NCBI GenBank assembly: GCA_029560465.1
Contig: JAKQKX010000016.1
Coordinates: 141,093-205,092, forward strand
Direction of reading: 5' to 3'
Length of the DNA stretch: 64,000 bases
From: Candidatus Omnitrophota bacterium
Lineage (GTDB): Bacteria; Omnitrophota; Gorgyraeia; Zapsychrales; JANLHA01
How positions within the stretch are numbered: position 1 is the stretch's first letter; each line of letters starts with the position of its first letter. The translations under genes were made by a program, and so were the position numbers. Below, in pieces: positions 21,796 to 54,089 of this stretch. The notes beneath the pieces are model-generated. The model saw only the letters and a program-made list of their open reading frames with translations, ran no database searches and was not told the DNA's origin.

Positions 21796-22067
21796 GAAGA
21801 GGGTAATCCTGTCTGAAAAACAGGCCTATAAAGAGTTAGAAAAGAGGGCCCTGGAATTAGAAGCCGTTGAGCTTGAACTCGAGAAAGCGGGAGGGAGTTA
21901 TCGTTGTTTTCCCGAACGGGTCAAGCCCATTGTCGAGACAGCATCTTGCCACATGGAACGCAGGCGAGTGCTGCGGTTATGCGCGTGATGAGGCGATTGA
22001 GGAAGCGCTGAGGACTGTGGAAGACAGCTAGGGCACACCTTGATTTTTAAATAAAAGGAGAGGGACA

Positions 22068-22631: not shown

Positions 22632-22698
22632 AAACAATGCGGAAGGTGGATTCCTGCCCGGCCGGCGTGGTGACGCAATGGGGGCAGGGCGGATCGCG

Positions 22699-24570: not shown

Positions 24571-24884
24571 GACGCTTCCCTTCTTGTTTTTGAAGTCGAG
24601 AAACAAAAAATAAACGGCGATATCATCAGTCTTCGGCTTTGATGCCTCATTCCAACGATTTGTTAAGAATTGTCATATTAAATATATCTCTCTTTCTTGA
24701 AACTTGCATTTAAAATCTCGTTTTTTTGGTTGATACAAAAACTAACTCATTATGAAAACAAAAGTAACATTAGAGAATTTTTCTTTAATTTTAAAATGAC
24801 AAAAAAAACAGAATTTTGCTAAATTAAGAATTGAATATTGGTTATAATATTAGCAACTTTAATTTTAAAAGGAAGGAGAGCGTT

Positions 24885-26240
24885 ATGGAGAAGTGCCTGA
24901 GGAAATGTTTCATCGTTTTGACTTTAGTTGGGTTTATTATTTCCATGGCAGGAGTCGCAAGTGCAGACTTCTTGCAAGAGTTAGAAGAAAGGCTCGAAGT
25001 CAGCGGTGACATCATGACGATGGCAACTTATATGACGAATTACCGAGGGCAGGGGGGCGACGACGGGGCAATTATTACAAGGGCATTAGTGGCCTTGGAT
25101 TCCAAGATAACCGATAACCTGCTTTTAAGGAGCGAGCTTGGCTACTGGCAGAATTGGCAACATTACCGTAAAACTTATCATGCCAGTGAATTAGAAGATG
25201 CCCCTGAGTCTGCTGACCCGGTTGTGGCAAATCTTTATTTACAGCTTACAGATTTTTGGCAGGGCTTTAGCGCTACTCTTGGAAGGCAATATATGGGGGA
25301 AAGTGAAGACGCCTTTTTCTATTTTGGGCCTCACTCCGGACGCTTTTTGGAATTGACGGCCATTGATGCCATAAAGGTGGACAAGAACTGGGCTAAGATT
25401 AACTGGAGTACTTTTTTCGGGCAGCGGGCTAGAATGGGGACCGGGATCGCCATGGAAGGAAATTACGATGATCTCTTCTATGGTATCGAAGCCCAGACCG
25501 ACGAGATTTTTGAAGGTCATAATTTTAGGATGGGAACCTATTACCGCAAGCGGGTGGATGACACCCTGGGCGAAAAGTCCAACCTTGTCCTTTGGACATT
25601 AAAAGGTGACGGCAAAACCTTTATCGACAACTTGGACTATGCTTTTCTCCTGGGAATTAATGCCGGGGAAGACGATATAGCCAATAAAGATTACACCGGC
25701 TGGCTTGCCAGGTTAAAGGGCGATTATTCAATTAAATTAGAGGAAGACAACACAATTGATTTGAACGCCGGTTATGTTTATGTTTCCGGAGACAAGCTCG
25801 CCAGCCCGGGTAAGGATGAGAATTTCCGGCGCATCAGCCGTGACTGTTTTTTCTCCATGGCGTATATTACCTACGAGATATTAAATGATTCGTATGCCGA
25901 AGATGTTATTAATGTAAAGATCCCTTTTGTCGGCGTGGAGTATGGCTTTGGCGGAAAAGGCGAACAGATGGAGAACAAGATTTATAAAGAGTATGGCATA
26001 AAGACTGAAGATAAAGTCACGGTCGGGACGCGGTATGCGCTTCTTGATTGTGTCAGGGCCATATCCGGGGAAAAAGGAAAAGCGACCGAGGTCAATGGAT
26101 ATATTAAATATGAATTGAATAAAAATGTTTCGTTTCAGCTGGTAGGGGCCCGATTTTGGCCGAGAGGTTATTTGGAGAAAGCTTTCAAATCAGGGAAACC
26201 CATGAACCAGGTTTCTCTTTATACAGAAGTGCGTTTCTAA
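24885..26240 (+). CDS. Putative outer-membrane beta-barrel protein (porin-like)
   Basis: Signal peptide. The alternating-residue strand pattern and C-terminal ...YTEVRF aromatic terminus are typical of OM barrels. Strong AAGGAAGGAGAG RBS. Confidence 0.55.
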   Translation: MEKCLRKCFIVLTLVGFIISMAGVASADFLQELEERLEVSGDIMTMATYMTNYRGQGGDDGAIITRALVALDSKITDNLLLRSELGYWQNWQHYRKTYHASELEDAPESADPVVANLYLQLTDFWQGFSATLGRQYMGESEDAFFYFGPHSGRFLELTAIDAIKVDKNWAKINWSTFFGQRARMGTGIAMEGNYDDLFYGIEAQTDEIFEGHNFRMGTYYRKRVDDTLGEKSNLVLWTLKGDGKTFIDNLDYAFLLGINAGEDDIANKDYTGWLARLKGDYSIKLEEDNTIDLNAGYVYVSGDKLASPGKDENFRRISRDCFFSMAYITYEILNDSYAEDVINVKIPFVGVEYGFGGKGEQMENKIYKEYGIKTEDKVTVGTRYALLDCVRAISGEKGKATEVNGYIKYELNKNVSFQLVGARFWPRGYLEKAFKSGKPMNQVSLYTEVRF

Positions 26241-26486
26241 TTGCCGTTTTGTGTTTTCAAGGGGTTCAAACAGCCAAACAAAAGATAGATTAGGTTTTGG
26301 AAAATAGTTTTTAACGCATTTTCCGGTTAAGAAACTGTTTGTGCTTTATTATCTAAAAATCCTGCAGAGACCGCTTCGCTTAATAATTGATATTGTCTTT
26401 GGCCTCCAATCCGTCCAAGCTAACCCTGCTATCCGACTACTTCTTAATACCCGCATTAATGATGGATGGCAATTTATACAATTGTT

Positions 26487-26515
26487 TTGATTGACGTTCG
26501 GAATTAACGTATAAT
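26487..26515 (+). promoter_or_regulatory. Putative sigma70-type promoter (TTGATT-17-TATAAT)
   Basis: Hexamers with 17-nt spacing lie about 110 nt upstream of the 26626 start. Confidence 0.4.
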
Positions 26516-26625
26516 TTTTTAATTGAAAAGAGCCTTTATGAAACAGCGAAAAATAGCCGGCTCATGAGTTGAGGGGCCGCGGCATAAATTGTTTTGGGAT
26601 TTACAAATTAAAAAAGGAGTAAAAT

Positions 26626-27645
26626 ATGAGGTGGAATGTTATAAAAATTATTAGTATTTGCGCCGTCTTTTGTTTTGTAAATACCGCAATTTGTAAAGCA
26701 TCTGATAAAAAACAAACCGTTATTGGAATATTAAGGGTCGCTCCTCCGTTTGGAGTTGAGATCGAACAGGGATTTAAGGATACTTTAATATCTTTGAGCC
26801 AGGAAGCAGGGAACAAGATCCAATTTTTACCAACAAAAATAGCGCATAGCGAGTCAAAATATTTTGATGAAAACATCGCTATGGCGCAAGAATTACTTGA
26901 ACAAGGAGCCGATATCCTTATTACGATCGGGACACAGGCGAGTGTGCCGGTATGGCCGGCAATAAAGAAAACTGGAATTCCGATGATTTTCTCGGGAGTA
27001 ACCTTTCCCATTGAAGGAGGATTGATAAAAGAATTTAATAACCCTACAGGTGAAAATATAACGGGAATAAGTTATGGCGTGACGCCAGAGGCAAGATTAG
27101 AACTTTTCCGTAACATGTTTTCTGATGAAAGCAGATTTAATAAATTGGGATTTGTATACGATGGTAATGTGCTTCAAGAAACGATCTATGTAAAGCGTCT
27201 TAAAGCACTTGTTGATACGAAAGGATGGGAAATAGTATTTTTAGATTTTTATGACCCTGATCAAGGGAAGATTAGCTGTGAGCTTCTGTTGGAGAAATTG
27301 AAGCAAAGTACCCCGGACCTTATCTTTGGTTGGTTTAGCCTTGACCAGCTTAGTTCTGATGAAGAACAATTTAAGAAGTTGCAAGATTTATATAAAAAAC
27401 CAATACTCGGGATTACCAGTAAATTTACCGATGAAGGCGCGATCGGCGGCGTTTTAACGAACCATTTTTCTTTGGGGGCCCTGCAGGCAAAGATTGTGGA
27501 TAAGATAATCCAAGGGGAGAAAGCAGGCGCTATCCCTCCCATGGAGCCTGTTGAATATTTGATAGAACTCAACCTTAAAAAAGCTGCTGAGCTGGGAGTC
27601 GAGTTTGATTTGGATGTCATGGCTGCCGCGGACAGATTGATTTAA
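26626..27645 (+). CDS. Periplasmic substrate-binding protein, COG2984/ABC-type uncharacterised transport system-like
   Basis: Signal peptide. Size and alternating beta/alpha pattern fit a type I periplasmic-binding-protein fold. No adjacent permease or ATPase. Confidence 0.45.
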   Translation: MRWNVIKIISICAVFCFVNTAICKASDKKQTVIGILRVAPPFGVEIEQGFKDTLISLSQEAGNKIQFLPTKIAHSESKYFDENIAMAQELLEQGADILITIGTQASVPVWPAIKKTGIPMIFSGVTFPIEGGLIKEFNNPTGENITGISYGVTPEARLELFRNMFSDESRFNKLGFVYDGNVLQETIYVKRLKALVDTKGWEIVFLDFYDPDQGKISCELLLEKLKQSTPDLIFGWFSLDQLSSDEEQFKKLQDLYKKPILGITSKFTDEGAIGGVLTNHFSLGALQAKIVDKIIQGEKAGAIPPMEPVEYLIELNLKKAAELGVEFDLDVMAAADRLI

Positions 27646-27886
27646 TAAGCCGAAGGTGGATTCCAGGGAGCCGGAGAGCCCTCGCCGTCATCCCAGCAGC
27701 CTTCGCCCCAAGGAAAGCCTCTGTTTTCGCGACAGCGTGTTCTCCTCTACGACAGATGATTACGACTTCGGATTGTATCCTTAAAGGGATGATGCCCCGC
27801 TATGGGTTGAGGGGTTGGTAAGGTCAGGGTTGTTGATAAGAATTGTGAAATGTTAAATCAGTGCTTTTATAGAAAGGAACCAAAAA

Positions 27887-28783
27887 ATGAGTGAAGAAAA
27901 AAACGTGATGAGCCCTCCAACTTTTGAGAATAAGTCATTGCCGGGACGCTGGTGCCGAGCGGCCATCCTCGCGCTGTCGGTCCTTGGATTCGCGGTGACC
28001 GCCTTTGCCGGCACGGTATACGTCACATACGTGACAGATAACAACGCGCAGGTTTTGAGCGAGCCGTCAAGCGCCGGGAGCGTCTTGTACACTCCACCCC
28101 TATTCGGCGTGCTTGAGGTGGTGGAGTATGAATCGCAGGCTGACTGGCTTCAGGTGGTTACTCCGGGAGGAGAAAAGGGCTGGATCCTCAGGTCTTCCGT
28201 CCTGTTTCAGGAGGGCGGAACGGGCGACCCCTCATCTGCGAAGAAGGGCGTGGTCGACCGCGCGTTCGCTAAGCAGGAAATACTGAAGTGGTGGCAGACA
28301 ACAGGCAAGAATGCGACGCCGGTATGTGATATCTGCAACGCCCGGGTGCCCCAGGACACTGGCTACATGCTGACCACCCAGCAGGTGCTGGGATCCAGGG
28401 CGTATCATGAAATGTTGAAGAGCCGGGCGCCGGGCACGTATAGTCAGATGATCGAGCGGTTCGAGCACGACCCTACCCCATGGTGCATCTGCGAAAAGTG
28501 CATCGAGCAGTACTTTATGGATGTGCCGGGTTCGTCCAATCCGGACGAGTTATCGAAAGCTCTTCAGGCTAACAAAGATTTGCGTAAGCGTACCCTTGAG
28601 GCTGTCAGGAGTCAGTATACGATGGAACAGGTGCGGGAAAGAATGAGTAGCGGCCAAATATGGCTGGTTGAAGACGCTGCTCACCCGGGGACTGTTTATC
28701 CCATCACCCCCGGAATAGATGGATGGATTTTGGAGGAGCTTGAAGCCGAGCAACTTTCTGCGCCGGCAGGTTCCGGACAATAG
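27887..28783 (+). CDS. Membrane-anchored/secreted protein with bacterial SH3 (SH3b)-like domain, Cys-rich C-terminal region
   Basis: TM/signal segment then AQVLSEPSSAGSVLYTPPLFGVLEVVEYESQADWLQVVTPGGEKGWI is an SH3b-like pattern. CxxC pairs occur later. Confidence 0.45.
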   Translation: MSEEKNVMSPPTFENKSLPGRWCRAAILALSVLGFAVTAFAGTVYVTYVTDNNAQVLSEPSSAGSVLYTPPLFGVLEVVEYESQADWLQVVTPGGEKGWILRSSVLFQEGGTGDPSSAKKGVVDRAFAKQEILKWWQTTGKNATPVCDICNARVPQDTGYMLTTQQVLGSRAYHEMLKSRAPGTYSQMIERFEHDPTPWCICEKCIEQYFMDVPGSSNPDELSKALQANKDLRKRTLEAVRSQYTMEQVRERMSSGQIWLVEDAAHPGTVYPITPGIDGWILEELEAEQLSAPAGSGQ

Positions 28784-36135: not shown

Positions 36136-36414
36136 CGTTTTGAAACAGCTGTGAGCTTTTCTCGTCATGAAAATGCATTTTAAAGGGGCGCGGCGCGATT
36201 TTTTGCGGGAGGCCGCTGCGACGGCTTTAAAAATTTATGGCAAGAATACTTGACATGCCCATACAGGTATGATAACACCTAATTAGATTTGTATGAAAAA
36301 GGAATTAAATATGTTGAGCTGGCAACTTGAAAGGCGTGAGCAGGAAAATATCATTTGTGCTTTTCATTAGGGTTTGTCCCGGGAGGATTTCCCCTTGACT
36401 ATAAAGACTTAAAG

Positions 36415-36462
36415 ACAGGAATCTGAAAAAAGTGGCGGTTCCTGTTTTTTTTTGTGAATACA
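36415..36462 (+). promoter_or_regulatory. Leader hairpin (ACAGGAA...TTCCTGT) followed by T9, immediately upstream of the ATP-grasp/kamA operon RBS; putative attenuator/riboswitch terminator
   Basis: 7-bp stem, 17-nt loop, then TTTTTTTTT. It lies within a 340-nt untranslated leader. Confidence 0.4.
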
Positions 36463-36477
36463 AGGAAGAGGAGCGTT

Positions 36478-37500
36478 ATGAAAGTTGGCTTCACATACGA
36501 TTTGAAATCTGATTGGGTGCGGACATCCGGGGACCCACGGGATGCCAGTGCGGAATATGACACACCGCAAACGATTGATGCGGTTGCCGGGGCGTTGGCC
36601 TCTGAAGGGCATGAGGTTTTGCGGATCGGCAATCTGCGGCAGTTGCTGGATGGCTTGGACACGTTAGACGTGGATCTGGTGTTTAATATTTGTGAGGGCA
36701 TCCGGGGCCGCAACCGGGAATCCCAGGTTCCGGTTCTGCTGGAGGCCCGCGATATTCCTTATGTGGGCTCTGACGGGCTGACGATGGCTCTGACCCTGGA
36801 CAAGGTGATGGCTAAAAAGTGTTTCCTGGCGGACGGGATCCTGACACCCCGGTCTTGGGTCGCCCATCAAGCCACGGATATCCCGGAGGCATGCCTGAGT
36901 CATTTCCCGCTCTTTGTCAAGGCTTCTGCGGAAGGGTCCTCGAAAAGTTTAAACGCGGCTTCCCGGGTGGAAAACAGGGAAGACCTCATTAGGCAGGTTG
37001 ATTTTGTTTCTTCAAGATATCATCAGCCCGTTTTGATCGAGGAATTTATCCAGGGGCAAGAATTCACCGTGGCTGTGTTGGGGAATAATCCACCCCAGGC
37101 CGCGCCGGTTGTTCAGGTAAGCATTGGCGATGGAGAGGATTTGGGCGACCGGTTTTTTACTTATGATATGGTTGTGGATGAAGATATTTTGACGTACCTT
37201 TGCCCGGCGCGAATACCGGCGGATCTGGCGCGGACGATCCAGGATTTGGCCATCAGGGCGTTTCAGTCCGTCGGTTGCCGTGATTTCGGCCGGGTCGATT
37301 TCCGGGTTGACCGTGACGGAACGCCTTATGCGCTGGAAGTTAATCCCTTGCCTTCCCTGGGGATGAATGACGTGTTTAATGTCTTTCCCCAAGCGATGGG
37401 GATAACATACGATGCCGTTATTCAGCGTATCCTGCGCTTTGCCTTGGAACGTTACGGGATGGTTAGCCCGGTTGGAAACGAAAGGATTGTGACCATATAA
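36478..37500 (+). CDS. D-alanine--D-alanine ligase family ATP-grasp enzyme (divergent N-terminal domain)
   Basis: C-terminal ATP-grasp motifs align with Ddl (LFVKASAEGSSKS, VLIEEFIQGQEFTVAVLG, GCRDFGRVDFRVD, ALEVNPLPSLG). The N-terminus lacks the canonical Ddl motif. Confidence 0.7.
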   Translation: MKVGFTYDLKSDWVRTSGDPRDASAEYDTPQTIDAVAGALASEGHEVLRIGNLRQLLDGLDTLDVDLVFNICEGIRGRNRESQVPVLLEARDIPYVGSDGLTMALTLDKVMAKKCFLADGILTPRSWVAHQATDIPEACLSHFPLFVKASAEGSSKSLNAASRVENREDLIRQVDFVSSRYHQPVLIEEFIQGQEFTVAVLGNNPPQAAPVVQVSIGDGEDLGDRFFTYDMVVDEDILTYLCPARIPADLARTIQDLAIRAFQSVGCRDFGRVDFRVDRDGTPYALEVNPLPSLGMNDVFNVFPQAMGITYDAVIQRILRFALERYGMVSPVGNERIVTI

Positions 37501-37520
37501 TGACGAACGAAAGATAGAGC

Positions 37521-38684
37521 ATGAAGGATTCCCCGTCTCCCTTAACAGAACTCACCTTGGAAGAAGCGAACGCTACGGATCAGGGAGTGCGCGTGCGTGC
37601 CTGCTTCCCGGGTGTTTCGGATGACGAATGGAACGACTGGCGCTGGCAGATTAGAAATTGCTTTAAGACGCGCCAAGCCCTGGAAGCCATCATGTCTTTG
37701 ACCCCGGACGAACAGGAGGGGATAGATCATTGCGGCCAGAAGCTGACCATGGCGATCCCCCCGTATTTCGCCGCTTTGATCGACCCCGATGACCCGGCGT
37801 GCCCTATCCGGCGACAGTGTGTTCCCACCCGGCAGGAGTTGATCGCCAGTGATGGAGAGCTGGTGGACCCTTGCGGCGAGGACAAAGACTCGCCGGTTAA
37901 GGGGGTGGTGCACCGTTACCCGGATCGGGTTTTGTTTTTGGTGAGCGACCAGTGCGCGATGTATTGCCGTCATTGCACGCGTTCACGGATACTGAATGAT
38001 GGCCACAGCCACTTTAATTCTTCCACCTATGACGAAGCGTTTCATTATATCCTGGAGCATAAAGAGGTGCGGGATGTGCTGGTGTCCGGGGGGGACCCGC
38101 TTCTCCTTAACGATAACCTGCTGGAATATCTGCTCCAGAGAATCAAGTCGATCCCGCATGTTGAATTTGTCCGTATCGGCACCCGGGCGCCGGTGAGCCT
38201 GCCGCAGCGGATCACTCCGGCGCTGTTGAGAGTGTTAAAGAAATATTCTCCGTTATGGATCAGCATCCATTGCAACCATCCCCAAGAGATCACTCCTGCT
38301 GTCCGGGAGGCCTGCGGGGCATTGGCGGATATCGGAATTCCCCTGGGAAGCCAGACCGTGCTTTTAAAAGGGATTAATGATGACCCGGTAACGATGAAAA
38401 CGTTAATGCACGCCTTGCTGAAGATCCGGGTGCGGCCGTATTATATTTACCAGTGTGACCCGGTTGTGGGAACCCGGCATTTCCGCGCGACCATTCAGGG
38501 CGGGCTTGAGATTATGGAACAGTTACAGGGTTTTACCAGCGGCTACGCCGTGCCCAAATTTGTCCTGGATGTCCCCGGCGGGGGCGGAAAAATCCCTCTG
38601 AATCCCAACTACATTGTCCGCAGAGAAGAGACTCAGTACGTTCTACGGAATTACGCCGGAGAACTGTTTTATTATCTTTCTTAA
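37521..38684 (+). CDS. kamA: L-lysine 2,3-aminomutase (radical SAM, PLP-dependent)
   Basis: CAMYCRHCTR is the CxxxCxxC motif. There is near-collinear similarity to clostridial KamA throughout (HRYPDRVLFL, IRVRPYYIYQCD, GYAVPKFVLDVPGGGGKIPL). Confidence 0.9.
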   Translation: MKDSPSPLTELTLEEANATDQGVRVRACFPGVSDDEWNDWRWQIRNCFKTRQALEAIMSLTPDEQEGIDHCGQKLTMAIPPYFAALIDPDDPACPIRRQCVPTRQELIASDGELVDPCGEDKDSPVKGVVHRYPDRVLFLVSDQCAMYCRHCTRSRILNDGHSHFNSSTYDEAFHYILEHKEVRDVLVSGGDPLLLNDNLLEYLLQRIKSIPHVEFVRIGTRAPVSLPQRITPALLRVLKKYSPLWISIHCNHPQEITPAVREACGALADIGIPLGSQTVLLKGINDDPVTMKTLMHALLKIRVRPYYIYQCDPVVGTRHFRATIQGGLEIMEQLQGFTSGYAVPKFVLDVPGGGGKIPLNPNYIVRREETQYVLRNYAGELFYYLS

Positions 38685-38889
38685 GAAAAAATCCCGTTGA
38701 AAAGCGTCGGGTCCATGTCTCCGGAGCAGAAGCGCCCTTCCCGGCCCAAGGCCGAAATTGACAAATTTAATAGATATGTTAAGATAGCGCCGGCTGCGGA
38801 AGAAGTCTGCGGCGTGGTTAACATCAATTGTGTGATCACGCGCGTTTTTCCCGGGTTGCGGGATGCGCGTTTTTCGAAAGAGGTGATTT

Positions 38890-39192
38890 ATGAAAAAAGT
38901 GGAAGCGATTATTCGCAAAGAGAAATTTCAGGATGTGTGTGACGCCCTGGAAAAATCCGGGTTTGGGGGGGTGACGGTTCTGGAGGCCCGGGGTTTCGGC
39001 CGGCACCGCAACGGGTTGCAGGAGAAAGTCAAATTGGAAGTTTATGTTGATGAATTTCAGATTGACAAGCTTGTGGAGCTTATTTTCAAGCATGCCCGCA
39101 TGGGGGTGACCGGGGACGGGAAAATTGCCGTTGTTGACTTGCATAATTTGTACCGGATCCGGACTGGAGAGCAGGGCGCGAGCGCCATTTAA
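38890..39192 (+). CDS. P-II (GlnB-like) family signal-transduction protein with shortened T-loop
   Basis: MKKVEAIIRKEKF...GFGRHRNG...DGKIAVVDLHNLYRIRTGE. The T-loop is about 12 aa shorter than GlnB and lacks the Tyr51 context. Confidence 0.7.
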   Translation: MKKVEAIIRKEKFQDVCDALEKSGFGGVTVLEARGFGRHRNGLQEKVKLEVYVDEFQIDKLVELIFKHARMGVTGDGKIAVVDLHNLYRIRTGEQGASAI

Positions 39193-39643: not shown

Positions 39644-41200
39644 ATGATTAAAGTCAAAAGAGCTCTGTTGAGCGTGTCGGACAAGTCCGGACTTGTTGAA
39701 TTTGCCAGGGGCTTGCAGGGGCTGGGGGTGGAAATTGTTTCCACGGGAGGTACGGCCCGGGCGTTGAAGAACGCACAGGTCCCGGTGGTGGAAGTTTCGG
39801 ATTACACCGGGTATCCGGAAATCCTGGATGGCCGGGTCAAAACCTTGAATCCTGTTATTCACGGCGGCTTGCTGGCGGTGCGCGACAATCAGCAGCACAT
39901 GGAACAACTGGGGCAGCAGAAAATTGGCCTTATTGACCTGGTCGTGGTCAACCTGTATCCTTTTGAAAAAGTTATCCAGAAAAAAAATGTTTTTTTGGAT
40001 GAGGCGCTGGAAAATATTGATGTCGGCGGCCCGACCATGCTAAGGGCCGCGGCTAAAAATTTCAAGAGCGTGGCCGTCGTTTGTAATCCGGCCCGGTACA
40101 GGGAGGTTCTGGAGGAGCTTCAGAGGAATAACGGCCTGCTTTCCGAGTCTGTTCTCAAAAGCCTTGCGGTGGAAGTCTTCCGGCATACCTCCCAATATGA
40201 TGAGGTGATTTATGATTTCCTGAATCAAAGGATGCGCAGCGGGGAGTTGACCGGCTTGCCCCGCAATTTGACCCTGCGGTTCAATAAAGTCGTGGACTTG
40301 CGCTATGGGGAAAATCCTCATCAGGATGCGGCGTTTTATCAGAGCGCGCAGGGGACGTCTGGCCTGGCCCTGCTTCGGCAACTTCATGGCAAGGAACTGT
40401 CGTTTAATAATTATCTGGACCTGCACACGGCCATCCGGGTTGTCAAGGATTTTTCTTCGCCGGCGGCGGTTGTGATCAAGCACAATAATCCCACTGGCGT
40501 GGCCGAAGATGCCCGCCTTTCGGAGGCGTACAAAAAAGCATGGAAATCCGACACATTGTCCGCGTTCGGAGGCATTATCGGGTTGAATAAGAAAGTGGAC
40601 GCCCAGACCGCGGAGCTGATTGAAAAAAGCGGGTTTATGGAATGCGTTATCGCCCCGGATTACGCCCGGGACGCGTTGAAAATTTTAACCCAGAAAAAGA
40701 ATATCCGTCTTATAAAATTAAGTGAGAGTGACCTGGAAAAGAACCCGTGGGATTTCCGGCAGGTCGACGGCGGCTTGCTGGTTCAAACAAAAGATGAGAA
40801 AAAATTGACCGAGGCCCAGTTGAACGTGGTTTCTCTCCGGAAACCGACGCAACTTCAGCTGGCATCCATGCTGTTCGGGTGGAAAGTGATCCGGCACGTT
40901 AAATCTAACGCCATTATTCTTGTTAAAGGGCTGCGGACCGTTGGGATTGGTTGCGGCCAGACGTCCCGCGTGGAGAGTGTGCATTTGGCCATCCGTAAAG
41001 CCGGGACGGCCGCGCGGGGATCCTGCCTAGTTTCGGACGCCTTTATCCCCAAGACGGACAACATCGAAGCCGCGGCCCGGGCTGGAATCAAGGCGATCAT
41101 CCAGACCGGCGGCTCCATCGCGGATGAGGACGTTATTAAGGCCGCGGACAAGCATAAGATAGCCATGGTGATGACCGGCGTTCGTCATTTTAAACATTGA
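39644..41200 (+). CDS. purH: Bifunctional AICAR transformylase / IMP cyclohydrolase
   Basis: N-terminal MGS-like domain (ALLSVSDKSGL...STGGTA) and a C-terminal AICARFT domain. Confidence 0.9.
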   Translation: MIKVKRALLSVSDKSGLVEFARGLQGLGVEIVSTGGTARALKNAQVPVVEVSDYTGYPEILDGRVKTLNPVIHGGLLAVRDNQQHMEQLGQQKIGLIDLVVVNLYPFEKVIQKKNVFLDEALENIDVGGPTMLRAAAKNFKSVAVVCNPARYREVLEELQRNNGLLSESVLKSLAVEVFRHTSQYDEVIYDFLNQRMRSGELTGLPRNLTLRFNKVVDLRYGENPHQDAAFYQSAQGTSGLALLRQLHGKELSFNNYLDLHTAIRVVKDFSSPAAVVIKHNNPTGVAEDARLSEAYKKAWKSDTLSAFGGIIGLNKKVDAQTAELIEKSGFMECVIAPDYARDALKILTQKKNIRLIKLSESDLEKNPWDFRQVDGGLLVQTKDEKKLTEAQLNVVSLRKPTQLQLASMLFGWKVIRHVKSNAIILVKGLRTVGIGCGQTSRVESVHLAIRKAGTAARGSCLVSDAFIPKTDNIEAAARAGIKAIIQTGGSIADEDVIKAADKHKIAMVMTGVRHFKH

Positions 41201-41213
41201 CCCCCTCCCTTCC

Positions 41214-42602
41214 ATGAACTCCCAGGACGTCAGAGTTTACCTCGAATCTTTTTTTAATTTCGAAAAATCAGCATCCGTGGCGTTCTTCCCGGACGTGTTT
41301 AAGTTGAAACGGGTGGAGCATGTCCTCGGTCTTTTGGGGTCTCCGCAGAAGGACATGGTTTTTATTCACGTCGCCGGGACCAAAGGGAAAGGGTCAACGT
41401 GTGCTTACGCGGCGCATATTTTAAAGGAAGCCGGATATACGGCGGGGTTGTACACGTCGCCTCATCTGTGGGATGTTAAGGAACGGATCCGGGTTTTGAG
41501 CCCAGGGGGGGGCGGGTTCGCGCGCCCAGGGTTGTTTGAAGGTTGTATCCGCGAAGAGGAGTTCTGCGAGATTTTCAGGAAAATGAAGCCGGTCTTGGAT
41601 CTTATGACGGGAAACGGTGCCTTGGGGCGGTTGACGTATTTTGAGGTCTTGACCCTGGCGGCTTTGGTGTATTTTAAAAGCAGGCGGGTGGATTGCGTTG
41701 TCCTGGAAACAGGGATGGGGGGGCGGCTGGACGCGACGAATGTCGTTGAGGCGTCCGTGTGCGGCCTGACCCCGGTCAGCCTGGATCACACGCATATCCT
41801 CGGAGATTCTCTGGTCTCGATCGCGCGGGAGAAGGCGGGAATTATAAAAACAGTGCGTCAGAAGGTGGTGGTGTCCCGCCAGGCCCCTGCGGCAGAGGTG
41901 GTTATCCGGCAGCGGATTAGCGATGTCGGCTGTGAAGCTTTCTTCGCCGGAAAGGATTTCAGCGCTTTAGACGTGGAGGAGGCCGGGACCCAGCAGACGT
42001 TTGTGATCCGGGGCCGCCGTTCGGATTACATGGTCACGACAGAGCTGTTGGGGCGGCATCAACGGGAGAATGCCGCGTTGGCGGTCGGGTTGGTTGAGTG
42101 CCTGGCGGAAACAACTCAATGGAAGGTTCCTGCGGAAGCTATTCAAAAGGGCATCGCCGCAACGTCCTGGCCGGGGCGGTTTCAGATTGTGCGGACCGAC
42201 CCTACGGTCGTCTTGGACGTGGCCCATAACCCGGACTCGGCGCGGGCTTTGGCGGAAACGGTGCAGAGTTGTTTTCCGGGGAAACGGATCGTTTTGCTTC
42301 TGGGAATCTCTCGGGATAAAGATTTGCCTGGCATTTGTCGTCAGTTGACGCAGATTTCGCGGGAGGTTATCATAACGAGGGCCGGGCATCCCCGGGCCGC
42401 TGACCTGGATAATCCGGACATCCGGGAGATATTCCGGGGCCAGCCGTTTTTTGTTTCGCCGCATGTCCGGGAAGGGCTGAAAATGGCTTTGAGCAGGGCC
42501 GGCAAGGGCGATGTTATTGTGGCGACGGGTTCGGTTTTCGTCGTGGCGGAAGCGGGGGAAGGTTTCTTGGGCGGAAAGGCCGCGGACGATGATCCTCGGT
42601 GA
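41214..42602 (+). CDS. folC: Folylpolyglutamate synthase / dihydrofolate synthase
   Basis: Mur-ligase P-loop HVAGTKGKGST. Confidence 0.85.
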   Translation: MNSQDVRVYLESFFNFEKSASVAFFPDVFKLKRVEHVLGLLGSPQKDMVFIHVAGTKGKGSTCAYAAHILKEAGYTAGLYTSPHLWDVKERIRVLSPGGGGFARPGLFEGCIREEEFCEIFRKMKPVLDLMTGNGALGRLTYFEVLTLAALVYFKSRRVDCVVLETGMGGRLDATNVVEASVCGLTPVSLDHTHILGDSLVSIAREKAGIIKTVRQKVVVSRQAPAAEVVIRQRISDVGCEAFFAGKDFSALDVEEAGTQQTFVIRGRRSDYMVTTELLGRHQRENAALAVGLVECLAETTQWKVPAEAIQKGIAATSWPGRFQIVRTDPTVVLDVAHNPDSARALAETVQSCFPGKRIVLLLGISRDKDLPGICRQLTQISREVIITRAGHPRAADLDNPDIREIFRGQPFFVSPHVREGLKMALSRAGKGDVIVATGSVFVVAEAGEGFLGGKAADDDPR

Positions 42603-42623
42603 AAAGAGGGAACAGCAAACATT

Positions 42624-44111
42624 ATGGATCCTTTGTATAAGTTTGATGATACTATTGCGGCGATCGCAACCCCGCCCGGACAGGGAGGGATCGGCATCGT
42701 CCGTTTAAGCGGGCCGCGGGCCCTGGCCGTTGCGGATAAGATTTTCCATATCAAAAGCGGTAGGCTTCCGTCTGAGTGCTTGAGCCACACCGTTCATTTC
42801 GGGCATGTGGTTCAGAAGGCTGCGGGACCAACCGGAGGCGCTCGGGAGGACCAGGATTTTGATATGATCGATGAGGCGCTCCTTGTGGTGATGCGCGGGC
42901 CGAAGTCTTATACCGGTGAAGATGTGGTGGAGTTGAACTGTCATGGCGGCGCGGTTATTTTAGCGACGGTTTTGCGGCTCGTTATTGAACAGGGGGCCCG
43001 CTTGGCAGAGCCGGGCGAATTTACCAAGAGGGCTTTTTTGAGAGGCCGGATGGATTTGACGCAGGCGGAAGCGGTCCTGGATATTATCCGGGCTAAAACA
43101 GAAGCGTTTGTGAAAATCAGCGCGCATCAATTGAAAGGGGATTTGACGGCGGCCCTGGGATCGATCCGTGAACGGCTGATGGATGTTTATACGGGGCTGG
43201 AAGCAGCGGTGAATTTTCCGGAGGATGATATTCAACAGCAGAGCCGGTTTTTTCGCGCGGATAGCGCGCCAGGGGGCGTGGGTCGTCCGTTGTCCCGAAA
43301 CTCCGCCGGTCCGCTGGCCGCCACGGAGCAGGCTTTGGCGCAAATCCGGGCATTGATCGCCACGTCAACCGAGGGACGTATTTTAAGAGACGGGATTAAA
43401 GCCGTCATTTGCGGGAAGCCGAATGTTGGGAAATCTTCGCTTTTGAACCGGCTTCTTCGGCAACCGAGGGCGATCGTCAGCCCCTTGGAAGGCACGACGA
43501 GGGACACAATCGAAGAGCCCGTGTCGATCAACGGGATCCCTTTTCAGCTCGTTGACACGGCCGGGATCCTGCATCCCCGAGGCCTTATTGAGGAGGAGGC
43601 GGTCCGGCGCAGCCGTTTATGTATGGGAAGCGCGGATTTGATTATATTCGTGCTCGACGGGTCCAAAGAGCTCTCTGCGGAGGACGAAGCTTTAATCCCC
43701 GCTGTTACGGATAAGAACGCGCTGATTGTCGTGAACAAATGCGATTTGCCGCTTAAAGTGGATGACCCCATCATGAAGAAATTTTTTCCGGGCCATGCTG
43801 TCGTGCGGGTGTCCGCCCTTACGGAAGAGGGGATCCCGGAGCTTCTGGACAGGATGTTTAAGGCCGCCGTGCCGTCGGAGTCACATTGTTCCCGGAACAT
43901 CTTGATCAGCAACACGCGCCATGCGGAAGCGCTTTTTCAGGCTGAACGGTCTTTGCTGGAAGCGTCCGCGCATTTCGCGTCGGGTTTATCCTTGGAATTT
44001 GTCTCCGAAGATGTTAAGGCCGCGATCCGGGCTTTGGACCAGATTACCGGGCGGGACATCGACATGGATTTGCTGGATAAGATTTTTTCGGAATTTTGTA
44101 TCGGAAAATAA
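42624..44111 (+). CDS. mnmE: tRNA modification GTPase MnmE
   Basis: N-terminal IAAIATPPGQGGIGIVRLSG, a G domain (GKPNVGKSS) and the C-terminal CIGK tetrapeptide. Confidence 0.9.
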   Translation: MDPLYKFDDTIAAIATPPGQGGIGIVRLSGPRALAVADKIFHIKSGRLPSECLSHTVHFGHVVQKAAGPTGGAREDQDFDMIDEALLVVMRGPKSYTGEDVVELNCHGGAVILATVLRLVIEQGARLAEPGEFTKRAFLRGRMDLTQAEAVLDIIRAKTEAFVKISAHQLKGDLTAALGSIRERLMDVYTGLEAAVNFPEDDIQQQSRFFRADSAPGGVGRPLSRNSAGPLAATEQALAQIRALIATSTEGRILRDGIKAVICGKPNVGKSSLLNRLLRQPRAIVSPLEGTTRDTIEEPVSINGIPFQLVDTAGILHPRGLIEEEAVRRSRLCMGSADLIIFVLDGSKELSAEDEALIPAVTDKNALIVVNKCDLPLKVDDPIMKKFFPGHAVVRVSALTEEGIPELLDRMFKAAVPSESHCSRNILISNTRHAEALFQAERSLLEASAHFASGLSLEFVSEDVKAAIRALDQITGRDIDMDLLDKIFSEFCIGK

Positions 44112-44151
44112 ATCCGTTGGGCCCGGGGACTCGCTTGGGCCCGCATACGGC

Positions 44152-44886
44152 TTACGGGGCCGCCTTCTCCGCTGAATTCTCCCTGAAAAAAGATTCGCTA
44201 AAACGCGTCAGTTTTTCCATAAGATTGTCATCTTTCAGAAGGGCCTTGATCTTCGGGTGCGAGAGTAATTTGATATAATCCTGATTGTCCATCAGCGTTT
44301 GTATCTCTTGATCCTCGGTGATGCCTTTTATCTTTGGGTCGGACATGAGTTCTTTGCACTCTGGACGCGTTGATAAAGCCTGTAGTTTCTTGGGGTTTTC
44401 GAGGACGCGGAAAGCTTGCTTGATTTTCTGGGTTTGGGGTATCCGGCTTAGAACAATTTGGTTCAGGAGGGAGAAGGAAACCGACCCGTTGATGTCGTCC
44501 TTAACCGTCCCTAAGTTCAGCGCGTTAAAAGGGATTAAGGTCAGAAGGAACAGGATCCCGAACAGGACGCCCCATTTCCAGGCGAGGTTCACAACCCCGC
44601 CTAAAACACGGCTCAAAACGAGCGTTGTGCTTTTCCCTGTTTTCCCGATGGTGGATTTCCCTATGATGAGGACCAGGCGGAAGGCGAGGGACAGGATCAT
44701 GGTCCCGATAAAGGCGATGATGAGGGCGTTCAGGATGTTGCCGGTGATATCGTAATAGATGATCGCGGTGATGGAACAGAGGGCGAGGGCGATCGGGCCG
44801 ATGAGGACGCGGCACAAGCCCCTCCTGAACCCGCTTATGAAGAAAATGATCCCGGTTATCGCCACACCGTAATCCGTGTATGTCAT
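44152..44886 (-). CDS. CvpA-family membrane protein
   Basis: Four N-terminal TM helices in the CvpA pattern, then a soluble helical C-terminal region. Confidence 0.55.
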   Translation of the reverse strand: MTYTDYGVAITGIIFFISGFRRGLCRVLIGPIALALCSITAIIYYDITGNILNALIIAFIGTMILSLAFRLVLIIGKSTIGKTGKSTTLVLSRVLGGVVNLAWKWGVLFGILFLLTLIPFNALNLGTVKDDINGSVSFSLLNQIVLSRIPQTQKIKQAFRVLENPKKLQALSTRPECKELMSDPKIKGITEDQEIQTLMDNQDYIKLLSHPKIKALLKDDNLMEKLTRFSESFFRENSAEKAAP

Positions 44887-44931
44887 CGTGTTATTCCTTC
44901 TGGAGCCTGTCCGGGCTCAATGCCTGCAGTC

Positions 44932-45288
44932 TTACCGCCGGGTAGATTTCTTTTGTTCCGCGCGTTCTTTTTCGTCTTCAACAGCCGTTTTGTCTTTTTT
45001 GCTTTCGGATGACTTCCCTTCTGGAGAGGTAAGCACAACATAAATGATCCAGGGGATAAAAAAAATGCCGTAACCGAAGAGGATGAGAAAAGGTGTTCCT
45101 AAAATAAATTTGACATGCAGGGGGATTGAAAGTTTTTTGCGGTTCCTTTTCTTTTCCCTCTGCGCGATATAATCTTTGTAGGAGATAGACTGCGCGCCGC
45201 GTTTTTTGTATTCTTGCTCTACGTGCTGGCGCTCTTCCGGGGACATCTCCGCCCCGCCGTGATGAGTTTTGTTCTCCTGGTCGTCCAT
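44932..45288 (-). CDS. Small charged membrane protein, unknown function
   Basis: GAGGAG RBS before MDDQENK. One hydrophobic helix is flanked by K/E-rich segments. Confidence 0.4.
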   Translation of the reverse strand: MDDQENKTHHGGAEMSPEERQHVEQEYKKRGAQSISYKDYIAQREKKRNRKKLSIPLHVKFILGTPFLILFGYGIFFIPWIIYVVLTSPEGKSSESKKDKTAVEDEKERAEQKKSTRR

Positions 45289-45529
45289 CATGTTCTCCTC
45301 GGCTCGAATATAACATGGAACCATGGTCGGTTCAATGTTTTATCAATATATTTGCTTGGATAACCGCTGTGCGCAGTGTTAACTGGGGCGGGCCCGGGGC
45401 CCAGCTTATCCCGGAATCCCTCGAGCCGGCCCTGAAATTATCAAATAATTCTGTTGATTATTGAAGAGGTAAAGCATAAAATTAAACTGGATGTGGATTT
45501 TAAATGAATACGATCAAAAGGAAAGCCCC

Positions 45530-45880
45530 ATGAAAAAAAAGTCTGAACAAAGAAGGATGTCGAGACAATCTTGCCGTGTTCCTGTTGACGGGAAAGAAGG
45601 CAGTGTTTTTGAGGGACTGCGCACCGTGGATATTGGCCAAGGCGGGGTGGGGTTGATTTCCAACAACGCGATACCATTAAATGAAAAAATTGTCGTTCAA
45701 CTAGACCTCGGCCCGGACGAACAACCGGTATTGATGTTAGGAGAAGTTAAGTGGATTACAAAAGTCCGGAATGCGGACTATTACCGGGTCGGGATGTCTT
45801 TCTGCGAAGAAGTCGGTACCAGCTCGAGGTCTCGGTTAAAAAATTATTTCAAAGTTGAACCTTCCCCTTCTCCCAAGTGA
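45530..45880 (+). CDS. PilZ domain protein
   Basis: MSRQSCRVPVD...GLRTVDIGQGGVGL matches the PilZ RxxxR...DxSxxG pattern. Confidence 0.65.
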   Translation: MKKKSEQRRMSRQSCRVPVDGKEGSVFEGLRTVDIGQGGVGLISNNAIPLNEKIVVQLDLGPDEQPVLMLGEVKWITKVRNADYYRVGMSFCEEVGTSSRSRLKNYFKVEPSPSPK

Positions 45881-45889
45881 TCGAGTTTT

Positions 45890-46252
45890 ATGAAGAAGAA
45901 CATCATGACCCCTCTGGAAAACGATAATCGGTTATTTGAACGTTTCCTGGCCCGGTTCCCTGTTAAATTTCAGCATTCCCAACAGGATTACGGAACGAAT
46001 GTTTTTCTCCGAGACGCGTCTGCCCAGGGAGCCAAGTTTTCCACCTCCGAGCGTGTGTACGTGAAGGATAGTGTGTCTTTGCTTGTGAAGCTTCCTGACG
46101 GGGGAGACCCGCTGTCTTTGAATGGCCGTGTCGTGTGGGTGAAAGAAAAGTTCCCTAATCTCTGGGATGCTGGTCTGCAATTTCATAAAGCTAATTTTAT
46201 GCAACTTCAGAGAATGTACCGGCTTGTACGCAAACCTTCGTTTATATTTTAA
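45890..46252 (+). CDS. PilZ domain protein
   Basis: NRLFERFLARFPVKF...LRDASAQGAKF matches PilZ motifs. In tandem with the previous PilZ gene. Confidence 0.65.
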   Translation: MKKNIMTPLENDNRLFERFLARFPVKFQHSQQDYGTNVFLRDASAQGAKFSTSERVYVKDSVSLLVKLPDGGDPLSLNGRVVWVKEKFPNLWDAGLQFHKANFMQLQRMYRLVRKPSFIF

Positions 46253-46353
46253 TTCCATTCAAAATAACAGTAGAATTGATAAATAGTTATTTGTTTTTAT
46301 ATTATTAATATTAATATGAATATTATACATATTAAATTTTGTTGCAAAACTAA

Positions 46354-46382
46354 TTGACCAATAAACCATAATTTGCTATATT
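46354..46382 (+). promoter_or_regulatory. Putative sigma70 promoter (TTGACC-17-TATATT) for the pur operon
   Basis: Lies in the AT-rich 160-nt region upstream of purB. Confidence 0.45.
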
Positions 46383-46418
46383 ACATGCGTTTATAATCCA
46401 AAAAAAAGGAGTTGTCTT

Positions 46419-47714
46419 ATGATAGATCGCTATACCTTATCCAAGATGGGTAATATTTGGACAGATGAGCACAAGTTCTCTATTATGCTTCAGATAGAGG
46501 TCTTAGCCTGTGAAGCCTTGGCGAAACTGGGGGTTATTCCCAAGAAGGCTATGGAAAAAATAAAGAAAAATGCCAAATTTGATATTGATGAAGTGCAGCG
46601 GCTGGAAGAAAGGACGAAGCATGATATCGTCGCGTTTATTAATAACGTGGGGCAGTACCTCGGCCCGGAGGCCCGGTATTTGCATATGGGGTTAACGTCC
46701 TCAGATCTCCTGGACACTTCTCTTTCTGTGCAGTGCGTTGAGGCCAGTGATATTCTGATTGGTGATTTGAAAAAATTGTTGGCCGCTTTAAAGGTGAAAG
46801 CGAAGAAATATAAAGACACGTTTTGCATTGCCCGGACCCATGGCGTACACGCGGAGCCTATCACGTTCGGGTTGAAGCTGGCCGTCTGGTATGATGAAAC
46901 GAAGAGGAATATCGAACGCATGGAACAGGCCAGAGAAGCGATGCGGATCGGCAAGTTGTCGGGCGCAGTCGGCACATTTGCGAATATTGATCCTTCTGTC
47001 GAGGAATATGTGTGCGAGAAGCTGGCGCTTAAGCCGGCCAATATTGCGACACAGATCATCCAGCGCGATGTGCACTGCCAGTTCGTGACAACACTGGCGC
47101 TGGTTGGTTCCTCGTTGAATAAGTTCGCGACGGAAATCAGGCTGCTTCAGAAAACAGAAGTCCTGGAGGTTGAGGAGCCGTTTTTTAAGGGGCAGATCGG
47201 TTCGTCCGCCATGCCGCATAAACGGAACCCCGTGACCTGCGAGAGGATTTCTGGCCTCTCCCGGATCCTTCGCGCGAACGCTCAGGCCGCTTTTGAAAAT
47301 ATTTGCCTCTGGCATGAAAGGGATATCAGCCATTCTTCCGTGGAGCGCATTATCTTGCCGGACAGCGCGATTGCGTTGCATTATATGCTGCATAAATTGA
47401 TCCCCATCATAGATGGCCTGCTCGTTTACCCCAAGAACATGGTCGTCAGCCTCAGCAAGACCAAGGGGCTGATCTATTCCCAGCGAGTCCTTTTGGAACT
47501 TATGAAAAAGGGGTTAACTCGGGAAGATGCGTATGAGATTATCCAGCACTGCGCCATGCAGGTCTGGAAGGAAACGTCTGAGTTTAAAGACGTGCTTTAC
47601 CGGGACAGAAAAGTGCGGAAACATTTGAGTGCGGCGGAGATTGACGCCTGTTTTGACATTAAGTATTATGCCCGTTACCGGGATATGATCTACAAGCGGG
47701 TTGGTTTGAAATAA
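46419..47714 (+). CDS. purB: Adenylosuccinate lyase
   Basis: 431 aa fumarate-lyase family with the conserved S-loop (GSSAMPHKRNP). Confidence 0.9.
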   Translation: MIDRYTLSKMGNIWTDEHKFSIMLQIEVLACEALAKLGVIPKKAMEKIKKNAKFDIDEVQRLEERTKHDIVAFINNVGQYLGPEARYLHMGLTSSDLLDTSLSVQCVEASDILIGDLKKLLAALKVKAKKYKDTFCIARTHGVHAEPITFGLKLAVWYDETKRNIERMEQAREAMRIGKLSGAVGTFANIDPSVEEYVCEKLALKPANIATQIIQRDVHCQFVTTLALVGSSLNKFATEIRLLQKTEVLEVEEPFFKGQIGSSAMPHKRNPVTCERISGLSRILRANAQAAFENICLWHERDISHSSVERIILPDSAIALHYMLHKLIPIIDGLLVYPKNMVVSLSKTKGLIYSQRVLLELMKKGLTREDAYEIIQHCAMQVWKETSEFKDVLYRDRKVRKHLSAAEIDACFDIKYYARYRDMIYKRVGLK

Positions 47715-47757
47715 CAGCTGTTTTTTCTAAAAAAGTTTTAATTGGGGGGTTGTTCTA

Positions 47758-48462
47758 ATGGAAAAATTAAAAAAGATTTATGAAGGGAAGGCCAAAATTC
47801 TTTATGAAACCGACTCCCCGGATTATATCATTCAGTATTTTAAGGATGATGCTACGGCTTTTAACGCGGCCAAAAAGGGGACGATTCGTGATAAAGGAGT
47901 GGTTAATAATAAGATCTCCTCTAAGGTTTTTGAGCTTCTGGAGTCGGAGGGCATTCCCACTCACTTTGAAAAGATGCTTAGCGACAGGGAAATGCTCGTT
48001 AAGAGGGTGGAGATCGTGCCCCTTGAAGTGATTGTCCGTAATGTTGCCGCCGGCAGCCTTTGCCGCCTTTTGGGGCTGGAGGAGGGGACGGCGCTGCGGT
48101 GCCCGACACTGGAATTCAGCTACAAAGAAGACCGCTTGAATGACCCGATGATCAATGAATATCATATCCGGGCTTTGGGCCTTTCGAGCGACGCCGAAAT
48201 GGAAGCCATTAAAGGATTGACTTTTCGGATCAATGATATCATGACACGGTTTTTTAAATCCTTGAATATCATATTGGTCGATTTTAAGCTGGAGTTCGGC
48301 CGTTATAAAGGACAAATCCTCCTCGCAGATGAAATTTCACCGGACACCTGCCGGCTGTGGGAAATGGGGTCGGGGCGCAGGTTGGATAAAGACCGTTTCC
48401 GGAAAGATCTGGGTGAGATTGAAGAGGCTTACCAAGAAGTTTTGTGCCGGGTCAGCCGTTAG
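47758..48462 (+). CDS. purC: Phosphoribosylaminoimidazole-succinocarboxamide synthase
   Basis: MEKLKKIYEGKAKILYETD is the typical SAICAR synthetase N-terminus. Confidence 0.9.
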   Translation: MEKLKKIYEGKAKILYETDSPDYIIQYFKDDATAFNAAKKGTIRDKGVVNNKISSKVFELLESEGIPTHFEKMLSDREMLVKRVEIVPLEVIVRNVAAGSLCRLLGLEEGTALRCPTLEFSYKEDRLNDPMINEYHIRALGLSSDAEMEAIKGLTFRINDIMTRFFKSLNIILVDFKLEFGRYKGQILLADEISPDTCRLWEMGSGRRLDKDRFRKDLGEIEEAYQEVLCRVSR

Positions 48463-48595
48463 GGCGTGTTTCTTCGCGAACCTTCCCGTGCTTCTGAATC
48501 ATTAACCAAGTTCCACTTCTTCATGGCGTTCCCCCGGGGTGATAAACCCCGCTTGGAAAAATGCGCAGCGAAGACAACTTTTTCAAAAAGACATG

Positions 48596-51511: not shown

Positions 51512-51577
51512 CCGGGGCCGGGTGGATGAAAATTCCAGGACGATGTCCCAAAACGATTAATCAGAAAGCGGTGAGGT

Positions 51578-52237: not shown

Positions 52238-52238
52238 T

Positions 52239-53057: not shown

Positions 53058-53068
53058 GCGGAGGAACT

Positions 53069-54076: not shown

Positions 54077-54089
54077 TCAGCGGGGTTGA

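Follow-up and report, generated by a model that had tools for sequence, protein, structure and literature searches.

A KamA-family aminomutase gene paired with a Ddl-fold ATP-grasp ligase gene in Omnitrophota: a candidate unit for the formation and ligation of beta-lysine

We know of few fates for beta-lysine, namely fermentation, N-acetylation to an osmolyte, modification of elongation factor P (EF-P), and use in antibiotics made by non-ribosomal peptide synthetases. In the AblA/AblB system, the gene for a lysine 2,3-aminomutase adjoins the gene for the enzyme that consumes beta-lysine, and in the EpmB/EpmA system, the beta-lysine used by an ATP-dependent ligase comes from a KamA paralogue that lacks the C-terminal zinc domain. 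Here we describe a gene pair from a Candidatus Omnitrophota bacterium in which the partner of a KamA-family aminomutase is of another kind, a ligase of the ATP-grasp superfamily with a fold like that of D-alanine--D-alanine ligase (Ddl). The pair lies in a 64,000-nucleotide stretch of contig JAKQKX010000016.1 (assembly GCA_029560465.1, positions 141,093 to 205,092), which we call the window and whose own numbering we use throughout. The upstream gene encodes the ligase (36478-37500, plus strand, 340 amino acids), and the downstream gene the KamA protein (37521-38684, plus strand, 387 amino acids). We propose, with a probability of roughly 65%, that the pair is a bicistronic unit for the formation and ligation of beta-lysine, which would yield an amide-linked small product.

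The closest analogue, in its two-step logic only, is the PylB/PylC pair. PylB, a radical-SAM enzyme, rearranges L-lysine, and PylC, an ATP-dependent ligase of the CPS/Ddl superfamily, joins the product to a second amine in an amide linkage (PMC2933860, PMC8225853). PylB differs from the aminomutase discussed here in that it resembles biotin synthase and not the KamA family, and that its product is 3-methylornithine and not beta-lysine; moreover, there is no pylD, pylS or pylT near the window pair. Membership of the window ligase in the PylC family was considered and rejected, because PylC was found neither among the 60 best profile matches in the PDB, which Ddl and VanA dominate, nor among the phmmer matches.

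The other known systems resemble the window pair in part. Like ablA and ablB, the two genes adjoin each other, and an extended form of the module, described below, also contains a GNAT acetyltransferase. However, the partner of the aminomutase here is an ATP-grasp ligase and not an acetyltransferase, and the KamA protein falls below the AblA cut-off. Searches with tblastn and three GNAT probes found no match in the window or in the Omnitrophota loci, and the pair is flanked by genes for MgtE and a P-II-family protein. The likeness to EpmB/EpmA ends at the ligase, since EpmA is a lysyl-tRNA-synthetase paralogue and not an ATP-grasp enzyme, and at the aminomutase score, which is far below the EpmB cut-off. 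With Ddl and VanA, the ligase shares the fold, the residues that handle ATP, magnesium and the acyl-phosphate, and the equivalent of Glu15; it differs from them in its low identity (20-28%), its rebuilt N-terminal domain, the replacement of omega-loop residues K215 and Y216 and of S281, and its linkage or fusion to KamA instead of mur/fts genes. Precedents for what such a ligase might make come from Ngg, in which ATP-grasp and GNAT activities yield a capped dipeptide, and from carnosine synthase, which activates beta-alanine as carboxyl donor, although both belong to other ATP-grasp clades, use other substrates and work without an aminomutase. Text searches of a collection of open-access papers found no description of such a KamA/ATP-grasp pairing, which agrees with the statement in the first-pass annotation of this DNA that ATP-grasp ligases are not among the known partners of KamA. 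We are therefore dealing with known enzyme families in a conserved combination that has not been described before.

The same annotation had the coordinates, the order and the gap of the pair right. The spacer between the two genes, read directly from the sequence, is exactly 20 nucleotides long (37501-37520, plus strand), and a terminator scan found no terminator-like site within it. Presumably, the two genes are co-transcribed. The ligase gene starts with an ATG at 36478, which is preceded by the Shine-Dalgarno-like sequence AGGAAGAGGAG, and the resulting N-terminus agrees with the N-termini of homologues (MK[IV]G...). The protein is 100% identical to a protein of a Candidatus Omnitrophota metagenome-assembled genome (MAG).

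The KamA protein matches the Pfam families Radical_SAM and LAM_C. It aligns without gaps to the lysine 2,3-aminomutase of Clostridium subterminale (PDB 2A5H), at 52.8% identity over 358 residues (2A5H 8-365) and with a constant numbering offset of 20. The CxxxCxxC motif of the radical-SAM cluster is present, with C145, C149 and C152 in the places of C125, C129 and C132 of 2A5H. R154, D313, D350 and K357 stand for R134, D293, D330 and K337, so that all four of these residues are kept. We take R134 to bind the carboxylate of the substrate, D293 and D330 to hold its epsilon-ammonium group, and K337 to be the lysine that carries pyridoxal phosphate (PLP). Across 74 KamA proteins linked to the ligase, the three cysteines, R134, D330 and K337 are conserved in 100%, and D293 in all except one (73/74). 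Together, these residues contact every charged group of lysine, and KamA would therefore act before the ligase, with free L-lysine as its predicted substrate and free beta-lysine as its predicted product.

Family models place the protein close to AblA. It passes the subfamily model TIGR00238 (354.6 versus a cut-off of 199.2), and AblA is its best-scoring equivalog model (TIGR03820), which it narrowly misses (488.4 versus 525.4 bits, profile positions 3-358 of 417). The shortfall is due to the lack of the C-terminal extension with its zinc site: the window KamA ends 2 residues past the aligned region and is without the C-terminal cysteines of the inter-subunit zinc site (C375, C377, C380), and the position of the zinc-site residue C268 is occupied by Asp in the window protein and never by Cys in the 74 homologues. 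The EpmB equivalog is missed by a wide margin (246.8 versus 369.3). The equivalog thresholds for glutamate and arginine 2,3-aminomutase are missed as well (TIGR04368, 451.5 versus 650; TIGR04468, 411.2 versus 600), and both aspartates that bind the epsilon-amine are retained.

The ligase belongs to the ATP-grasp superfamily. Its only specific Pfam match is to Dala_Dala_lig_C (PF07478, 1.4e-34), next to generic ATP-grasp models; the Pfam scan gave no match to the N-terminal Ddl domain, which fits the description of a divergent N-terminal domain in the first-pass annotation. All NCBIfam models for Ddl, VanA-type and D-Ala-D-Ser ligases, NF002378 among them, score below cut-off, the best with 173.7 versus 243, and the score for TIGR01205 is 144.3 versus 245.65. 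An AlphaFold2 model built with 17 homologues has a mean predicted local distance difference test (pLDDT) value of 82 and a predicted template modelling score (pTM) of 0.85, and is weaker at residues 10-25 and 75-79. The best Foldseek matches of this model among solved structures are all Ddl enzymes, with a template modelling (TM) score of about 0.75, 20-28% identity and E-values of 1e-26. Sequence and profile searches of the PDB found no closer solved relative, and the alignments begin only at about residue 47-66, leaving the first 47-65 or so residues unmatched.

Residues were mapped onto E. coli DdlB with a MAFFT alignment. The ligase keeps K97, K144, E148, S150, E180, E187, R255, D257, E270 and N272, which serve ATP, magnesium and the acyl-phosphate, and also E15, which we take to bind the amino group of the first substrate. 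A Ddl-like fold in which all tested ATP and magnesium ligands are conserved thus characterizes the protein. The residues that distinguish it from DdlB are H63, replaced by an invariant E, E68 (R), the omega-loop residues K215 and Y216 (both V), G276 (S), S281 (D) and L282 (V). Of the E15-S150-Y216 triad of DdlB, the first two members are kept and Y216 is replaced, with the same pattern of substitutions across the relatives. The subfamily also has a signature of its own, which consists of an inserted, acidic and conserved N-terminal loop (TYDLKxDW...DPxDAxAE[FY]D) and the motif FNI[AC]EGxxGRxRE; the latter (FNI[AC]EG..G..RE) replaces the H63 region (FIALHGRGGEDG) of E. coli DdlB. A cationic substrate, for instance beta-lysine, would match the added acidic side chains near the substrate sites. 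The missed curated thresholds, the lack of a recognisable N-terminal Ddl domain and the replaced D-Ala residues make a canonical Ddl (EC 6.3.2.4) a highly improbable identity for the ligase.

Genomic evidence links the two genes. In a scan of one genome per species, at least 565 genomes encode a relative of the ligase, and the 80 best loci were fetched. All of these are from Omnitrophota or labelled as such, except for one labelled Margulisiibacteriota. KamA lies downstream of the ligase in 72 of the 72 loci whose contigs reach that far; in the remaining 8 of the 80, the contig stops short of the place where KamA would be expected. The arrangement of the window, with a single ligase followed by KamA, is found in 22 of the 80 loci, while in the other 58 a second ligase paralogue, 35-40% identical to the first, is inserted between the first ligase and KamA. 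In these two-ligase loci, stop and start codons overlap. The pairing of ligase and KamA is not a chance adjacency. Examples of the two-ligase type are the loci L034 (7992-11161) and L046 (7977-13879); in L046, KamA is followed by a paralogue of EF-G (653 amino acids) and then by a protein with only the C-terminal domain of YchF.

Beyond Omnitrophota, the two activities are found in one polypeptide. When 1.84 billion representative proteins were searched with a profile of the ligase family, 2,486 matched at E < 1e-30, and the top 150 of these were examined; each of these scores at least 258 bits, compared to at most 136 for solved Ddl enzymes on the same profile. Among the 150 are 39 tandem fusions of two ATP-grasp units and 3 fusions with a KamA domain, in both orders. 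With those of a further search included, the order ligase-KamA is represented by P0184, the order KamA-ligase by P0205, P0266, P0375, P0379, P0387 (36 members), P0391 (22 members) and P0396 (Desulfoferrobacter). Fusion of both genes in both orders is strong evidence of functional coupling. The further search also turned up tandem ligases, in MAGs labelled Gammaproteobacteria, Spirochaetota, Planctomycetales, Deltaproteobacteria and Omnitrophica, as well as tri-domain proteins (ligase-ligase-GNAT). Pairwise comparison splits the ATP-grasp units into two groups, which we call "A-type" and the divergent "B-type". The A-type comprises the KamA-fused unit, the first unit of tandems like P0147, the window ligase and the second Omnitrophota paralogue, and the B-type comprises the second unit of the P0147-type tandems and the unit that is fused to GNAT.

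Outside Omnitrophota, the genes form a longer module with the order KamA, ATP-grasp A, ATP-grasp B, GNAT. We scanned metagenomes with A-type sequences other than that of the window and obtained 80 loci, for which counts refer only to contigs that extend far enough. KamA lies immediately upstream of the A-type ligase in 49 of 53 (median gap 75 nucleotides), a B-type ligase follows the A-type ligase in 51 of 59, and a GNAT gene comes next in 29 of 38. The module occurs as KamA, tandem ligase and GNAT on a Myxococcota contig and on a second contig, as a KamA-ligase fusion followed by a ligase-GNAT fusion in L084, where Na+/H+ exchangers and a gene with a TrkA_N domain flank the locus, and as a KamA-ligase fusion, a transporter of the MFS family and a ligase in L081. 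Occasionally, sigma-54 activators with PAS histidine kinases lie upstream. Clustering of the neighbouring open reading frames (ORFs) of the 80 metagenome loci, which is noisy because of long antisense ORFs, revealed no neighbour other than KamA, the two ligases and GNAT that recurs strongly. The window gene pair is the minimal form of this multi-phylum module. A functional link between KamA and the ligase, as the first-pass annotation had suggested, is thus supported by synteny both in the relatives within Omnitrophota (72/72) and in metagenome loci of other lineages (49/53), by the fusions, and by the fact that the substrate residues of Ddl are not all conserved.

Individual loci contain additional genes. 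In L093 (10018-11868), a deacetylase of the HDAC/acetylpolyamine-amidohydrolase family (Hist_deacetyl, 6.9e-73) lies between the second ligase and GNAT, so that acetylation of the product may be reversible or protective. Two independent tandem ligases without KamA (L085, 8001-11432; L090, 3181-6368) have a Peptidase_S58 gene after them. S58 is the DmpA/BapA family, which includes beta-aminopeptidases, and its pairing with the tandem ligase suggests synthesis and hydrolysis of a peptide that contains a beta-amino acid. One single ligase without linkage to KamA has a methyltransferase gene as its downstream neighbour. Taken together, the MFS transporter, the two occurrences of Peptidase_S58 and the HDAC-family deacetylase fit small-molecule peptide metabolism. 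The GNAT proteins of the module give only weak RimI-like matches (40 versus 86 bits), and their identification as AblB was rejected on that ground. The ligase-KamA fusion P0184 (L083, 7171-9258) has a Gln at the position of D293 and is preceded by an aminotransferase gene; this fusion may take a different amino acid as substrate.

Our data suggest the following model. KamA would convert free L-lysine to beta-lysine by the radical-SAM/PLP-dependent 2,3-amino shift that its conserved residues predict. The A-type ligase would then use ATP to form an acyl-phosphate on a carboxylate and resolve it into an amide that incorporates beta-lysine, a role to which its fold, catalytic residues, synteny and fusions point. 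In the simplest case, beta-lysine would be the carboxyl donor, and the amine partner could be beta-lysine, lysine, or another amino acid or amine, in analogy to Ddl, which joins two D-alanines, and to PylC, which joins 3-methylornithine and lysine. In the extended module, the second ligase would add another unit and GNAT would cap an amine, sometimes reversibly, whereas the window and the 22 single-ligase Omnitrophota loci carry the core only. The gene content of the extended module points to a product that contains beta-lysine and is capped or extended, either a peptide or a polyamine-like metabolite.

Several points weigh against this model. Adjacency within the phylum is not decisive alone, because housekeeping neighbours (PurH, FolC, MnmE) are also syntenic in many Omnitrophota loci. 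A preprint reports KEGG orthologue K01921 (Ddl) in 176 of 176 complete Omnitrophota genomes, although this call could stem from the paralogue described here. Some members of the subfamily do not adjoin KamA, namely L088, L085/L090, L092 and 4 of the 53 metagenome loci. The ligase is without an equivalent of DdlB K215, which is presumably important for phosphoryl transfer in Ddl, and its activity may therefore be reduced or altered. The mapping of S281 to D298 of the ligase comes from a single MAFFT alignment, in a gapped region.

Alternatively, the ligase could be a divergent housekeeping Ddl, and its adjacency to kamA a consequence of phylum-wide genome colinearity. Public annotations do name it D-alanine--D-alanine ligase, it has the Ddl fold and keeps E15 and S150, the peptidoglycan pathway is intact in Omnitrophota, where K01921 was called in 176 of 176 genomes, and the neighbouring housekeeping genes share the synteny. 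In addition, E. coli DdlB as tblastn query retrieved no further homologue of Ddl, either from the 64-kb window or from the 80 Omnitrophota loci. We nevertheless consider a housekeeping function highly improbable, given that the ligase is below every curated Ddl cut-off, that H63, K215, Y216 and S281 are replaced, that most Omnitrophota loci hold two paralogues at this site, and that the subfamily is fused to KamA or embedded in KamA-GNAT modules in MAGs labelled Myxococcota, Gammaproteobacteria, Spirochaetota and Desulfobacterota. In all four groups, cultured representatives have an ordinary Ddl. As for the immediate surroundings, no cell-wall genes (mur/fts) were found among the Pfam-scanned ORFs of the window, and tblastn with the second Omnitrophota ligase detected no further copy there. 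That all 72 non-truncated Omnitrophota loci have the pair would also be explained if the ligase attached beta-lysine to a macromolecule, which could be the EF-P lysine (with the ligase as a non-orthologous replacement of EpmA), a peptidoglycan precursor or a ribosomal protein. EpmB/EpmA is a precedent for a KamA paralogue that works with an ATP-dependent ligase, the ATP-grasp enzymes RimK and LysX modify proteins, and some of the neighbours are related to translation (Era, MnmE, S21, and the EF-G paralogue directly after KamA in two-ligase loci). However, a tblastn search with E. coli EF-P, which did not extend to EpmA, gave no match in the window or in any of the 80 loci. The window KamA reaches 488 bits with LAM/AblA and only 247 with EpmB (cut-off 369), to which it is thus much less similar, and the accessory genes seen elsewhere (GNAT, MFS transporter, S58 peptidase, deacetylase) are more in keeping with a small molecule. 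Ddl-clade enzymes, moreover, are known for small-molecule substrates, and all this makes a macromolecular target very unlikely.

A small product could still arise by a different order of events or from a different substrate, with the ligase taking L-lysine or some other amino acid, or making a conjugate that is only later rearranged by the aminomutase. The Gln at position 293 of the fused homologue in L083 hints that the substrate of the aminomutase varies across the family, and the window KamA is below the lysine, glutamate and arginine aminomutase equivalog cut-offs alike. What makes this variant unlikely in our eyes is the set of residues R134, D293, D330 and K337, conserved in 73 of 74 linked KamAs, which bind the carboxylate, the epsilon-amine and (via PLP) the alpha-amine. 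Since the carboxylate and both amines are engaged, there is no free lysine group for a pre-attached partner. Fusion of the enzymes, too, is most easily explained by product hand-over. A special case of our preferred model, the formation and ligation of beta-lysine to a small product, is that this product serves as a compatible solute. KamA together with a GNAT enzyme is the known route to N-epsilon-acetyl-beta-lysine, GNAT is part of the extended module, Ngg of the synthesis of the dipeptide osmolyte N-acetylglutaminylglutamine amide (NAGGN) combines GNAT and ATP-grasp domains, and one locus lies beside Na+/H+ exchangers and a gene with a TrkA_N domain. On the other hand, neither the window nor the Omnitrophota loci have a GNAT gene beside the pair, the GNATs of the module are weakly RimI-like and not AblB, many contig titles are from non-saline sources (groundwater, lakes, activated sludge), and the nearby sigma-54 activators and P-II gene point as much to nitrogen control. 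We regard a role in osmoprotection as unlikely.

If the proposed beta-lysine ligation is true, the data indicate a further, ATP-grasp-dependent fate of beta-lysine that is encoded by a compact module, and with it a widespread, so far undescribed beta-lysine-containing metabolite or modification. The module is found in MAGs or contigs labelled Omnitrophota, Myxococcota, Desulfobacterota (Desulfoferrobacter), Gammaproteobacteria, Spirochaetota and Planctomycetales, and its two-gene version in the window is an easy target for reconstitution. There is also a practical consequence for annotation. The ligase subfamily is annotated as D-alanine--D-alanine ligase, by NCBI for this MAG and widely by JGI, despite the failed thresholds, and calls of K01921 and of the peptidoglycan pathway in Omnitrophota and other uncultured phyla may be inflated by the ligase paralogue.

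The intergenic region upstream of the ligase gene (36136-36477, plus strand) contains its leader and promoter region, 342 nucleotides in all. Pairwise alignment with L005, the closest genome locus, shows two conserved blocks within a spacer that has otherwise diverged. The first block, at about 36240-36285, contains the hexamer TTGACA (at 36250), and the second comprises 40 nucleotides (36349-36388). A promoter scan of the leader picked out TTGAAA-16-TATCAT, ending at 36354. Directly before the ribosome-binding site, a hairpin with 7 base pairs and a long loop (36415-36445) is followed by a run of nine Ts that extends to 36453. Rfam searches of the 342 nucleotides at gathering and relaxed thresholds detected no family. 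A known riboswitch, such as the lysine riboswitch, was rejected on the basis of the missing Rfam match and a fold z-score of only -1.2. The leader may act as an attenuator, or else as a cis-regulatory RNA of a kind not yet described.

Downstream of KamA, at a distance of 206 nucleotides, lies the gene of a small P-II-family signalling protein (38890-39192, plus strand, 100 amino acids, Pfam P-II at 1.1e-21), whose membership in the system is uncertain. A promoter-like sequence of its own (TTGACA-16-TAAGAT) is present at 38758-38785, and a P-II gene occupies the same position in 8 single-ligase Omnitrophota loci, with 65-71% identity. This gene and the sigma-54 activators beside the module in other phyla hint that nitrogen has a part in the control of the system.

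Otherwise, the pair is surrounded by common housekeeping genes that share its strand. The genes for Era, a YjeF_N protein, endonuclease III and MgtE lie upstream, and downstream, after the P-II gene, are those for ribosomal protein S21, PurH, FolC, MnmE and most of the purine pathway. The purine genes form a run on one strand (39644-55400) that encodes PurH, PurB, PurC, a fused PurS-PurL protein (990 amino acids), PurQ, PurM and PurD, with the genes for FolC and MnmE and a LOG-family ("Lysine_decarbox") gene (51578-52237) in between.

Elsewhere in the window, two stretches (14001-18000 and 22001-28000) have a G+C content of 39-44%, compared to 50-59% in the remainder. The first contains an HNH endonuclease gene (14623-15417) and ORFs without a Pfam match, and the second a methyl-accepting chemotaxis protein with Cache and HAMP domains (22699-24606, minus strand), an ORF of 469 amino acids without a Pfam match, and an ABC substrate-binding protein. 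Both may be horizontally acquired islands. A protein of 953 amino acids encoded at 11468-14329 combines Peptidase_M1 with a C-terminal Omp85 domain, which would be an unusual architecture of an aminopeptidase anchored in the outer membrane. A further fusion, of a Sua5/YrdC domain with a low-molecular-weight phosphotyrosine phosphatase domain, is encoded at 55903-56967.

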